Positions 35,037-37,060 of a stretch of 64,000 nucleotides of DNA are shown in pieces. The DNA is from a bacterium. Lineage in GTDB: Bacteria; Patescibacteriota; Minisyncoccia; Moranbacterales; DUUL01. The notes under the pieces are model-generated. The model ran no database searches. It was not told the origin of the DNA and saw nothing but the letters and a program-made list of their open reading frames with translations. The stretch spans positions 16,175 through 80,174 of the forward strand of contig JABGXP010000018.1 of the NCBI GenBank assembly GCA_018675685.1, written 5' to 3'. Position numbers and translations under genes: made by a program. Within the stretch, counting starts at the first letter, position 1; each line of letters starts with the position of its first letter.

Positions 35037-35107
35037 AAGAAGTAAGTTGTTTAGCACCGTAAATGTTATATGCTTGAGCATTTATGTCAATAGATGTTGC
35101 TTTTTGT

Positions 35108-35141
35108 TGACAAAAATCTTGAATTTAGTATAATTCTAGTC
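35108..35141 (+). promoter_or_regulatory. Near-consensus sigma-70 promoter (TTGACA-16/17-TATAAT)
   Basis: ttgacaaaaatcttgaatttagtataat. Confidence 0.6.
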
Positions 35142-35147
35142 AAGTAA

Positions 35148-35292
35148 TCACTTTATTATGAAAGATCCTCTGGCAACAAAGAATAATTATATTATAAGCC
35201 TTACCATTAGGTGACATATTTTATTTGCCGGAGAATTCTTACAATCAGTATACCACTCAAAAGAATTCCGGCGCAACCCGGTTTTTTATTTT
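35148..35292 (+). ncRNA. Candidate small RNA (promoter plus structured terminator, no SD-led ORF)
   Basis: Downstream of the consensus promoter. A 13-bp stem gccggagaattctt...aagaattccggc, then CCGG-cgcaac-CCGG, then a T-run. The only ORF is an 18-codon one without an RBS. Confidence 0.3.
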
Positions 35293-35448
35293 AATTAGTT
35301 TCTTGAAAATCAAGTAAGTCAAAAGTAGGAAAAGAGTCAAATATTCTTATTTTACTTTTGACTTGTTTGCAAAAAAAGCAATCTAGTCAAAAATAAGTGA
35401 GATGTTTTTTACAATCAGCAATTTAGCACCGAAAAGGAGAAAGTCTAA

Positions 35449-35652
35449 ATGGCAACAAAAAAGGAAAGAAAACTCGCCATCAAGGCGAGCAACGCAGAGG
35501 CGCAACTTCTCAACATGCATACACAAAAAATGACAACAGGCACAGGGGGGCGCTCAATTTCAAGGAATGACCTTCAGAAAAAAGAGAGAGTATTTCGCAA
35601 AAAAGAAGAAAGAGCAGAGGAGGCTTTGCGTAAAGCAAAGATTTTGGCATAA
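35449..35652 (+). CDS. Hypothetical small basic protein (67 aa)
   Basis: GGAG RBS. Lys/Arg/Glu-rich sequence with no homolog recognised. Confidence 0.45.
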   Translation: MATKKERKLAIKASNAEAQLLNMHTQKMTTGTGGRSISRNDLQKKERVFRKKEERAEEALRKAKILA

Positions 35653-35836
35653 GCTAAAAACCAGCATTCTGCACCACCTGCACTAAAAACACCTCATTTC
35701 GCTTATTCAAAAAAGAGGGCTTGTATATAAATCAAGCCCTCAACCTCTAAAACAACAATCTTTAATATAGAATCTATTCCGTGAGTCAAGAATCTCAAGC
35801 AAGAAAACAAGTCATTATTAGTGAACTTATTACTAT

Positions 35837-35912
35837 TCGACGAAGGTCGAGTTAATTTTGTTTTTAAAACTAAAAAACAAATTTAACTCGGCGAAGATTC
35901 GTCGTTTTTTTT
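35837..35912 (+). terminator. Long two-helix stem-loop plus T8 (terminator of an upstream non-coding transcript)
   Basis: cgacgaa/ttcgtcg and cgagttaa/ttaactcg helices followed by tttttttt. Confidence 0.5.
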
Positions 35913-35981
35913 ATTTATAAATTTAGTACATTAAAACCTATTGCAATAAACCAAACCTTCAATATAAAAGGAGGAGCTTAA

Positions 35982-36167
35982 ATGTGCAACGAAAAAAGGA
36001 TTGCAGAGATTAGCAGTGAAGAGCTGTTTTGGAAGGGAATTTCAACATTGGACACGGAAGCTTATTTAAGAGCCGTCATCTCTGGAAAAATTTCCGGTGC
36101 AGGAGAGGTTAAGTCAGTGGAGTGGTTCTTTTATTTAGAGATGATTGAATATGGTAGAGATAGTTGA
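35982..36167 (+). CDS. Hypothetical small protein (61 aa)
   Basis: Perfect AGGAGG SD and its own terminator downstream. Confidence 0.5.
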   Translation: MCNEKRIAEISSEELFWKGISTLDTEAYLRAVISGKISGAGEVKSVEWFFYLEMIEYGRDS

Positions 36168-36196
36168 ACTCTTTCAATGTTTGAACGTTTTTTAAC

Positions 36197-36234
36197 AACT
36201 CCTTTGATGCAACATCAAAGGAGTTGTTTTTTTG
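36197..36234 (+). terminator. Intrinsic terminator (14-bp stem)
   Basis: caactcctttgatg-caa-catcaaaggagttg followed by ttttttt. Confidence 0.85.
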
Positions 36235-36452
36235 AAGAAAGCAGTCTATAATTTAATTACTTAAATATTTTTTATTTTTTAAAATGTTTATTCGAAAGAA
36301 TCAATTACTGGGACTACTCCTGCTCCGAAATGCTCGGGTGGTTTTTGATTTCAAAGAATAGACAAATCGTAGATTTATTTAAAAGTTCTTTAAACAAGCC
36401 ACCAAGAAGGTGGTGTTTTTTTATTCATTCTTTTTAAAAAAAAGGAGAGAGT

Positions 36453-36719
36453 ATGGCTGAAATTGTTATAATCGAGGTTTTGGAAAAAGGTGTTTGTTTG
36501 AAAGATTTTGACATTCAGGGATTCAAACAACCATTGGAACTAGGTGAGATTCTTCATTTTTCGCTTGTGTGTAAAGCTGAGCATAAGGAAATACTAAAGG
36601 AGGACTGGATGTTGGTGGTTGAAAGTGAAGATAATGCTAAAAAAGGAGGAGGGCTTTGTAAAGAAGAATTTGATTTTTGTATGCAGTTCAATACCTTTAA
36701 GAAAATAGGCATTGTATGA
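36453..36719 (+). CDS. Hypothetical small protein (88 aa)
   Basis: GGAGAGAG RBS and its own terminator downstream. Confidence 0.5.
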   Translation: MAEIVIIEVLEKGVCLKDFDIQGFKQPLELGEILHFSLVCKAEHKEILKEDWMLVVESEDNAKKGGGLCKEEFDFCMQFNTFKKIGIV

Positions 36720-36743
36720 AAAAGATGATTTTGGAAAAATTAA

Positions 36744-36781
36744 ATCTCAGGTAGCGTCAATGCGTGCTACCTGAGATTTTT
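36744..36781 (+). terminator. Intrinsic terminator (12-bp stem)
   Basis: atctcaggtagc-gtcaatgcgt-gctacctgagat followed by ttttt. Confidence 0.85.
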
Positions 36782-37060
36782 CGAGAAAATTATGTTGGAG
36801 TGATTTGACATTTCTCTTAGAGATGCTAGTCTTGTGTTAAGTTAAGTTTATTATCATCATCTTGATGAACCAAGGAAGAATTACAATTTATGTGTTTATT
36901 CTCTTTATGCTCTGGATTACCCAGACCGATTTTGGTTTATCGAGAATAGAAGTTTAGCAAATATTTCAAGAAATTCTCAATAGTCCAAGACCGGTCTCAC
37001 AAGATCCGGTTTTTTTATTACTATTTTTTAATAAAATTTAGTTTAAAGTAAATTATTCAA

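Follow-up and report, generated by a model that had tools for sequence, protein, structure and literature searches.

Candidate leader-peptide attenuators and small protein genes in a gene-poor patch of an uncultured marine bacterial contig

Among the described switches that place a conditional terminator in front of a gene are the ribosome-stalling attenuators of Firmicutes (of the erm, cat, bmrCD or vmlR type), which act on antibiotic-resistance and stress genes and in which an early stall opens an antiterminator. The leu leader is the paradigm for rare codons in attenuation leaders (PMC1183508), and codon runs 5' of a terminator also mark the ilvGMEDA, ilvBN, thr, pheA and pheST attenuators of Proteobacteria as well as leader or upstream open reading frame (uORF) elements of Actinobacteria (PMC1262725, PMC10272879, PMC3082878). 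The trpL attenuator of Sinorhizobium yields both a small RNA (sRNA), rnTrpL, and a peptide, peTrpL (PMC6614838, PMC7298713), and riboswitches, T-box elements and protein-dependent antiterminators are built on an expression platform in which an antiterminator and a terminator exclude each other in the 5' leader (PMC12591593, PMC5314783). Here we describe a patch (35100-37060) of a 64-kb stretch of contig JABGXP010000018.1, the whole of which we call the window and whose positions we use throughout. Its source looks like an uncultured marine bacterium of the candidate-phyla-radiation (CPR) type, and the patch carries four conserved blocks, A to D, with features of such leaders in front of three small protein genes (orf67, orf61 and orf88) and of an operon encoding a HAD-like hydrolase and a 401-aa protein. 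Full-text literature searches for leader peptides or for attenuation of transcription in the CPR, or in Patescibacteria, returned no paper.

Counting open reading frames (ORFs) of 60 aa or longer, the patch is 33.5% coding and the window 88%, and four of the window's 12 gaps of at least 200 nt fall inside it; the low coding density that had first set the patch apart in a preliminary description of this DNA is therefore genuine. Leaders A to C could be compared with a single relative, L016, a 37-kb metagenome contig. The genes flanking the patch are 57–85% identical to those of L016 at the protein level, with saturated synonymous sites (proportion of synonymous differences, pS, 0.65-0.76), and the three small proteins are 39-49% identical (48-56% at the DNA level). 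The best-conserved DNA of the patch lies between the genes, in stretches that annotators would label intergenic (blocks A to D, Table 1). All four blocks share one make-up: a short ORF on the strand of the downstream gene, lacking a Shine-Dalgarno site, with its start, frame and stop kept in L016 (and for D also in a further contig, L011), and then, between this ORF and the gene, an intrinsic terminator whose stem is conserved or held by compensatory changes. In the micro-ORFs of C and D, all three codon positions take up substitutions alike (pS 0.14-0.21; ratio of nonsynonymous to synonymous substitution, dN/dS, 0.5-0.8), and because third positions are not favoured the constraint acts on the nucleotides rather than on the peptide. 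These two micro-ORFs had been put forward as peptides in their own right; the lack of third-position bias fits leader ORFs within RNA switches better.

Table 1. Positions of the conserved blocks, candidate leaders, promoters, terminators and genes (leader helices of A and C are model predictions; P_C and P_D are predicted from sequence)
Feature	Position	Strand	Description
Promoter P_A	35107..35134	+	TTGACA-16-TATAAT; only 12/12 consensus match in 30-42 kb
Block A	35141-35292	+	72% identical to L016
Leader A	35141..35292	+	18-aa ORF 35158-35214 (MKDPLATKNNYIISLTIR) without Shine-Dalgarno site
Leader A helices	1:2, 35168-76:35225-33; antiterminator, 35226-40:35261-73	+	
Leader A terminator	35268-71:35278-81 + U6	+	weak CCGG/CCGG
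Long hairpin, orf67 5' untranslated region	35311..35369	+	inverted repeat; sits within AGTCAA cluster
orf67	35449..35652	+	67 aa, very basic (pI 10.6, net charge +10); strong Shine-Dalgarno site
Hairpin after orf67	35714..35741	+	GC-rich; without T-run on + strand
Leader B	35781..35912	+	ORF 35781-35855, GTG start, ...QVIISELITIRRRSS, without Shine-Dalgarno site
Block B	35806-35912 (core)	+	72% overall, core 93% identical to L016
Leader B terminator hairpin	35838-35904 then U8	+	3' end of ORF is its 5' arm
orf61	35982..36167	+	61 aa, acidic, soluble; 7-nt Shine-Dalgarno site
orf61 terminator	36194..36235	+	16-bp perfect stem + T-run; overlaps -35 box of P_C
Promoter P_C	36224..36252	+	TTGTTT-17-TATAAT; below promoter-scan threshold
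Block C	36236-36422	+	77% overall, core up to 97% identical to L016
Leader C	36259..36421	+	25-aa ORF 36284-36361 (MFIRKNQLLGLLLLRNARVVFDFKE) without Shine-Dalgarno site
Leader C helices	1:2, 36311-19:36336-44; antiterminator, 36337-42:36398-403	+	pause-like hairpin 36324-36338
Leader C terminator T2	36398-403:36409-14 + U7	+	
orf88	36453..36719	+	88 aa, acidic, soluble; strong Shine-Dalgarno site
orf88 terminator	36742..36784	+	14-bp perfect stem + T-run
Block D	36791-37020	+	82% overall, core 97% identical to L016
Promoter P_D	36805..36832	+	TTGACA-16-TAGTCT
Leader D	36839..37016	+	30-aa ORF 36865-36957 (MNQGRITIYVFILFMLWITQTDFGLSRIEV) without Shine-Dalgarno site
Leader D helices	1:2, 36860-73:36932-45; antiterminator, 36923-47:36973-97	+	1:2 covers start codon
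Leader D terminator	36987-97:37002-13 + U7	+	
Operon putatively gated by D	37061..38839	+	HAD-like hydrolase 37061-37510; 401-aa protein 37585-38790; terminator 38808-38839

The effect of a translating ribosome was modelled by holding a 27-nt footprint unpaired at each codon of a leader ORF and computing the probability of the terminator stem (P) from the ViennaRNA partition function. Nine gene-end terminators of the window served as a control, and wherever the 27-nt mask was placed upstream of them P stayed at >= 0.98 in eight. The other one, a hairpin at 48138-48162 about 40 nt 5' of rplJ (L10) and the only control to respond even in part, fell only to 0.67; it fits an L10-leader type of attenuator missed by Rfam. 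Competition between an antiterminator and the terminator was seen in A, C and D and not at the gene-end terminators.

Four copies of leader D could be aligned, namely that of the window, two tandem copies in L016 (L016-a and L016-b) and one diverged copy in L011, whose ORF reads MNQGNQNLALYLFICMFIIWFYPVSFGLLENTI. RNAalifold found a long helix on the 25-bp scale in which the 3' arm takes in the terminator's 5' arm, and six of the 27 antiterminator pairs change on both sides across the four sequences. Helix 1:2 is paired at 90% and the terminator at 94% across the copies, the latter with two compensatory pairs, compared with 32-58% overall in slid-partner controls of the same two elements. In the masking model all four copies form the antiterminator while the ribosome is on codons 1-15 and the terminator when it occupies codons 16-28, and the run of aromatic and hydrophobic codons ends at the boundary between the two states, as it does in the leaders of two other contigs, L008 and L014 (see below). 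Leader D is thus predicted to be a switch, and one supported by covariation as well as by thermodynamics. The second L016 copy (D-b) starts some 15 nt after the terminator of the first (D-a) and lacks a promoter of its own, so that the two would act as tandem attenuators in series on one transcript; in the window, no promoter is seen in the 44 nt between the D terminator and the HAD gene, whose transcription would therefore need read-through. Both boxes of P_D are identical in L016, and L011 has TTGACA-16-TATCCT. The micro-ORF of D had been noticed before, in another frame (MCLFSLCSG...); the frame with the conserved ATG is that of Table 1. A metagenome scan with a degenerate D pattern excluding the window allele returned one contig that was already known and one chance match inside a coding region.

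Leader C contains a 25-aa micro-ORF that had been recognized correctly in the preliminary description. Its counterpart in L016 is MFIRRNLLLKLLLLRDARVVFDFKE, with substitutions even over codon positions (pS 0.21), and both peptides contain a leucine run, LLGLLLL in the window and LLLKLLLL in L016. The four consecutive Leu codons of the window copy (CTA CTC CTG CTC) are drawn from the window's three rarest Leu codons (13%, 6% and 6%). P for the terminator is close to 1.0 except when the ribosomal P-site is on codons 10-12 in the window (0.03-0.15) or 9-14 in L016 (0.00), a dip that falls inside the Leu run and whose position is stable in both genomes over six RNA 5' ends and three footprints. 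Since T2 ends 32 nt before orf88 and leaves no room for a promoter, orf88 would be transcribed only by read-through. At the aligned place of P_C, L016 has TTGTCT-17-TATGAT. A scan of viral contigs with the C core gave 0 matches.

Leader A had been described as a non-coding, hairpin-terminated transcript (35148-35292) behind a consensus promoter. The promoter is as described, with TTGACA-17-TATAAT at the aligned place in L016 and transcription probably starting near 35141, and the terminator is present too; the transcript, by contrast, contains a conserved 18-aa ORF, whose L016 form is MKNLLATKNIYIKSFVLGR, with the frame kept and a Ser AGC/TCA change. This ORF has no run of codons for a single amino acid. 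In the model the terminator of A has a P of 0.98 when no ribosome is present; a ribosome on codons 1-10 brings it to 0.00, one further along the ORF leaves it at about 0.9, and the values for L016 are similar; in A, as in C, the antiterminator and its sequestering helix are found thermodynamically in both genomes. Leader B conforms less well, as the exclusive pair is not cleanly found there. Its ORF reads MRQFSNQIIISEIIIIRRRSS in L016, differing by a 9-nt in-frame indel, and carries an Ile run on which a modelled ribosome has a partial effect; the outer and the short terminator stems are both conserved. Four matches to the B core in the viral-contig scan were chance matches in unrelated GC-rich DNA.

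That A, C and D each contain a conditional terminator of some kind is, in our view, quite probable. That all four blocks are ribosome-mediated leader-peptide transcription attenuators arranged in series is a proposition on which we are evenly balanced; we favour it over its rivals because it jointly explains the retained ORFs, the codon runs and their placement, the three-helix logic and the absence of selection at the peptide level. Under ribosome-mediated attenuation, A would gate orf67, B orf61, C orf88 and D the HAD and 401-aa operon. In A, C and D the antiterminator shares bases with the 5' arm of the terminator and can itself be sequestered by helix 1:2, so that an early stall in the leader ORF would free the antiterminator and let RNA polymerase read through, and a ribosome that reaches the end of the ORF would allow the terminator to form. 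With no ribosome present, the terminator would form in A, in C and in the window copy of D. The stall could be caused by a shortage of charged tRNA (for Leu in C, Ile in B and aromatic or hydrophobic residues in D) or, alternatively, by general translation stress. Translation of the leader ORFs, the amino acid sensed, conditional termination in vivo and the role of the regulated proteins we infer from these sequences and models. The missing Shine-Dalgarno sites are no argument against translation of the leader ORFs, because 45 of the 60 window ORFs of at least 100 aa also lack such a motif (3-12 nt upstream of the start).

Several observations weigh against this interpretation. The masking model is one of equilibrium and not of kinetics. 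The terminator of leader A is a GC stem of only 4 bp, and the 1:2 helix of A has two mismatches in L016. The dip in window leader C is shallow (0.5-0.7) when the RNA 5' end lies at or after 36268, and the helices of C are invariant in the one relative available for A to C and so show no covariation. In B, the long and the short hairpin both run into the U-run with no clean antiterminator, and terminator pairing is only partly lost (0.3) with a ribosome on the second Ile cluster; B may be a plain terminator or an sRNA. Codons 5-19 of D are 97% identical in DNA, with one synonymous change where about seven are expected, a constraint that exceeds what a leader peptide asks for and needs an additional function, at the RNA level or in trans. 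Finally, nothing known ties the presumed targets (ORFans, the HAD-like hydrolase and the 401-aa protein) to the metabolism of Leu, Ile or Phe, although attenuated genes usually belong to the pathway of the amino acid sensed.

In a rival reading the terminators are flipped by a small molecule, an RNA-binding protein, a tRNA or an sRNA acting on the conserved 5' halves, with the ORFs incidental, a possibility that we consider rather unlikely while taking it seriously. Nucleotide conservation beyond the need of a peptide, the even substitutions in C, in D and in the first leader of L008, and the leader ORFs without Shine-Dalgarno sites all accord with it, as does the segment 36880-36925, which is 97% identical, apparently unstructured and contains three 9-nt repeats of the UUUAU type that could be a protein-binding site. 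Yet the patch yielded no Rfam family, even at E <= 10, and the 5' halves no conserved aptamer-like structure; moreover, the ATG, the frame and the stop position are kept in all copies, including the diverged ones of L011 and of L008/L014, and the modelled ribosome mask flips the switch where the Leu, Ile and aromatic codons are clustered, with a partial effect in B. The notion that some or all blocks, B above all, are stand-alone trans-acting sRNAs or small-protein genes, with the protein genes on separate weak promoters, strikes us as doubtful. B always folds to the terminator and has a 93%-conserved single-stranded ATTATTAGTGAA.TTATTA upstream that resembles an sRNA seed, A stands behind a perfect, conserved promoter, and Sinorhizobium provides examples of trans action by leader peptides and by RNAs derived from attenuators (PMC6614838, PMC7298713). 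Such independence is hard to reconcile with C and D, where the next start codon follows T2 and the D terminator after 32-44 nt and no promoter can be recognized in between, with the promoterless D-b copy, or with antiterminators that compete in A, C and D and not at gene ends.

A type I toxin–antitoxin-like arrangement, in which the hydrophobic micro-ORFs of D and C would encode membrane toxins under antisense RNA, with constraint on both strands, seems to us very improbable. The D peptide does have a transmembrane-like core (maximum Kyte-Doolittle value 2.0 over 15 residues), D is tandemly duplicated in L016, nucleotide conservation is high and a weak promoter-like site lies on the minus strand at 36980-36951; this site, however, has no conserved counterpart in L016, the peptide sequence is not under purifying selection (dN/dS 0.67-0.78, no third-position bias), the second D copy has no promoter, the long helix joins the 3' end of the ORF to the terminator arm in cis, and the peptides of B (24 aa) and A (18 aa) are not hydrophobic. 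We give still less credence to a variable island of secreted or RiPP-like (ribosomally synthesized and post-translationally modified) precursor peptides serviced by an adjacent 'ATP-grasp' enzyme, along the lines of which the preliminary description had interpreted the small ORFs. They do adjoin an enzyme-sized protein of unknown family, and one homologue of that 401-aa protein matches ATPgrasp_YheCD faintly (E = 0.11). That hint is the sole basis for an ATP-grasp or amidoligase label, which Pfam, NCBIfam and PDB searches do not bear out, the window protein itself giving no ATP-grasp signal in the three databases. The trio of small genes occurs in L016 without the HAD and 401-aa pair, and the pair occurs elsewhere without the trio, the linkage being broken in L016 and in L008, L011 and L014, which speaks against precursors for the neighbouring enzyme; the three proteins are soluble, and secretion finds no support in them, as a signal peptide, a hydrophobic N-terminus and a transmembrane segment are all absent from orf67, orf61 and orf88. 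There is no shift in composition and no integrase that would support an island, and the tRNA gene at which the patch was said to end, tRNA-Pro (38909-38980), lies 1.85 kb beyond it with two genes between. As set out below, the patch is also syntenic in L016, and it is invariant in population contigs. Ribosome-mediated attenuation remains the reading we prefer, and what does stand of the initial interpretation is that the patch is special in grouping short units, each with its own terminator, and in containing regulatory RNA.

The three small genes themselves are, on sequence evidence, true coding genes that are fast-evolving and lineage-specific. In a frame-specific Markov model each has a positive coding score that is best in its own frame and exceeds those of all 78 spurious ORFs of similar length, so that the coding signature looked for in them is present; the scores of orf67 and orf61 are at the low end of those of genuine genes. 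Evolution relative to L016 points the same way, with dN/dS of 0.22 for orf61 and of 0.19 for orf88 (homologue of 85 aa, 41% identical); for orf67 (64 aa, 39% identical) third codon positions vary most, with a weaker excess than in the other two. The proteins are mutually unrelated. An exhaustive HMMER search of 1.84 billion representatives with orf61 found a sole homologue, P0010 (45% identity, E = 1.7e-7; 85 aa as called), which is the protein carried by L016, while in word-indexed searches of 5.8 billion proteins orf67 and orf88 each matched only themselves. The search for relatives that had been proposed for these proteins was thus productive for orf61 alone. Pfam, NCBIfam and PHROGs assign none of the three to a family, and a single-sequence AlphaFold2 (AF2) model of orf88 was unusable (predicted local distance difference test score, pLDDT, 48).

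Their Shine-Dalgarno sites are 6-7 nt long, and motifs of this length were observed on orf67, orf61, orf88 and the 401-aa gene. Strong sites seem to be reserved for a special subset of genes. The small ORFs had been said to combine such sites with strong terminators of their own; this holds for orf61 and orf88, whereas orf67 has no canonical terminator, the hairpin that follows it lacking a T-run on the + strand. That hairpin is kept in L016 with two compensatory pairs. We considered and rejected it as a minus-strand terminator: its T-run, which in the window stands on the minus strand only, is deleted in L016, where the stem is kept.

The HAD-like hydrolase is confirmed by Pfam and NCBIfam. 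Its partner has only four homologues, 55-60% identical, among 5.8 billion proteins, and a HAD gene lies just upstream in three of the four contigs that carry them (L008, L011 and L015; L014 has none), so that the two look like a conserved, very rare pair. Leader-like elements are found 5' of the homologues in every contig with enough upstream sequence, L015 holding only about 70 nt upstream of its HAD gene: L011 has the D homologue, and L008 and L014 have two tandem leaders each, with aromatic-rich ORFs (FNLFFSFWYFF; NLYFYFWYFLF) and their own antiterminator/terminator pairs. Searches of PDB sequences with the 401-aa protein, as a single sequence and as a profile, gave no match, and an AF2 model from five sequences was too poor for a fold search (pLDDT 41). 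The longest ORF call for this gene starts at GTG 37534 (418 aa); its Shine-Dalgarno site belongs to ATG 37585.

The comparison with relatives that had been suggested for the patch finds the block present and syntenic in L016. Gene order there is GT4, DUF192, a 112-aa ORF, miaA on the minus strand, the homologues of orf67, orf61, the 25-aa micro-ORF and orf88, and two copies of the 30-aa ORF; a 460-aa protein of unknown function, an M20 peptidase and a DUF5684 protein then occupy the place of the HAD and 401-aa genes, and are followed by GDH, DUF5661, a second DUF5684 gene, a Sua5-like gene and TruB, an order that matches the window except for the Sua5-like gene. Because the patch is syntenic in L016, it is not a variable island. 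BLASTP finds no similarity between the 401-aa and the 460-aa protein. The L016 segments 8944-9262 (duplicated leader D) and 9405-11978 (460-aa protein and M20 peptidase) have the appearance of a module swap 3' of a conserved regulator, and control of a peptidase by a leader that senses amino acids would be physiologically plausible. The patch has a GC content of 0.33-0.34, in composition like its surroundings (the window has about 35% GC and a strong gene bias to the + strand). Contigs retrieved by exact-protein look-up, from Saanich Inlet and other metagenomes, are all 100% identical across the patch and so carry no comparative signal; the sole difference from population contigs over 9.6 kb, observed against contig L003, is the length of an A-run at 39047-39056, just 5' of the GDH start codon. 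A scan of GTDB genomes with miaA found nearest species-level matches of 52% identity, without synteny. This gene (34089-35081, minus strand, Pfam-confirmed) is divergent from P_A, and the adjacency is kept in L016. MiaA acts on the tRNAs for UNN codons (Phe, Tyr, Trp, Leu-UUR), which it modifies, and is known to affect attenuation (PMC13434334); leader D is rich in codons of this type.

Terminator-like sites number 16 in the 12 kb from 30 to 42 kb, versus 7.1 +/- 2.7 expected, and most fall within the patch. The hairpins reported earlier at 36399-36422 and 36990-37017 and the two stem-loops within 35653-35912 are all present. Relative to L016, the orf61 terminator has two compensatory pairs and the orf88 terminator one (the latter being retained under every mask in the control); the 11-bp core of the long hairpin upstream of orf67 (35317-27:35353-63) is kept with one compensatory pair and two wobble changes, and the segment 35141-35460 has a folding z-score of -4.2. 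Because pairing persists through such two-sided changes, we take the terminators and hairpins of the patch to be genuine RNA structures, as judged from comparison of the two genomes. At its gathering score Rfam recognized tRNA-Pro alone in the whole window, and at E <= 10 the 26 matches within 35000-37100 were at chance level, driven by hairpins, and included no leader family, T-box or riboswitch; the segments 35148-35292 and 35653-35912, which had been singled out for such a check, gave nothing beyond chance. A repeated motif, ttacaatcag, to which attention had been drawn, is likewise at chance level (six matches with at most one mismatch versus 7.3 expected) and is not conserved in L016. Another motif, AGTCAA, occurs five times within 253 nt (35138-35390), with a further copy near 35784, and 35 times in the whole window; the clustered copies fall, among other places, in each arm of the 35311-35369 hairpin and in TAGTCAAAAATAAGTGAG, a conserved sequence immediately 5' of orf67. 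It may be a candidate protein-binding motif.

Two other places in the window caught our attention. At 18262-18550, where mnmA and the gene of a TrmB-like regulator leave a gap, there is a small unit with a strong Shine-Dalgarno site (AAAGGAGG), a 27-aa ORF (MATNSSLDEETTGKSGAETLQNPNQRR, about 18377-18460) and a 12-bp terminator (18449-18480). The largest non-coding gap of the window, 44272-44945 (674 nt), contains a GC-rich hairpin at about 44427-44457 and a TTGACA box near 44865; Rfam found no match in this gap, which may hold an unannotated RNA.

Regulation in CPR bacteria is almost unstudied. If our preferred reading is correct, classic ribosome-coupled attenuation operates in a lineage whose genes mostly lack Shine-Dalgarno sites, it can have very small, lineage-restricted proteins as its targets instead of biosynthetic operons, and orf67, orf61, orf88 and the HAD and 401-aa genes are regulated together, perhaps in response to starvation or translation stress. 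We offer, as a speculation that we ourselves hold to be improbable, that an auxotrophic symbiont of CPR type senses amino acids supplied by its host directly through Leu, Ile and aromatic attenuators that do not govern biosynthesis but switch on small ORFan effectors of its own and the lineage-specific HAD and 401-aa pair, exchanged for a peptidase module in a relative, with the leader RNAs or peptides also acting in trans; trans action of abundant terminated leader RNAs or peptides would, if true, explain the near-invariant sequence. The leaders offer handles for metatranscriptomics in the form of four predicted 3' ends (about 35287, 35912, 36420 and 37016) and defined codon runs.

Set against the known systems, leader C comes closest to the enterobacterial leu leader (leuL; Rfam family Leu_leader). 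Its ORF likewise has four consecutive Leu codons of the rare CUN type, its GLLLL.NA seems to resemble the leu leader peptide of E. coli, MSHIVRFTGLLLLNAF, and in both an intrinsic terminator closes a series of 1:2 / 2:3 / 3:4 helices. Unlike the leu leader, it gives no Rfam match (E <= 10), its ORF lacks a Shine-Dalgarno site, it precedes an 88-aa ORFan and not leuABCD, and the organism is CPR-like and presumably auxotrophic. The Ile run of B and the hydrophobic and aromatic runs of D and of the L008/L014 leaders, placed 5' of a terminator, are the counterpart of those in ilv, thr and phe leaders, and the serial arrangement of A to D recalls multi-attenuator leaders; here, in contrast to those systems, the targets are neither biosynthetic nor tRNA-charging, B has no clear antiterminator, and the codon run of D is far more conserved in DNA than codon identity demands. 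A and D may be likened to the stalling attenuators of Firmicutes in their short hydrophobic leader peptides without a run of a single amino acid, in an antiterminator that an early stall would open and in their non-metabolic targets, and differ from them in having no resistance gene downstream and no known inducer. The expression platform is that of riboswitches, T-box elements and protein-dependent antiterminators, from which the patch is set apart by the absence of a recognizable aptamer, specifier, T-box or RAT-like (ribonucleic antiterminator) structure and of any Rfam match. By analogy with Sinorhizobium trpL, a terminated leader transcript or peptide with a role in trans could help to explain the conservation of B and D. 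Lying outside any Rfam family, the patch would by these analogies work like the leu, ilv, thr and phe leaders or like the stalling attenuators of stress and resistance genes.

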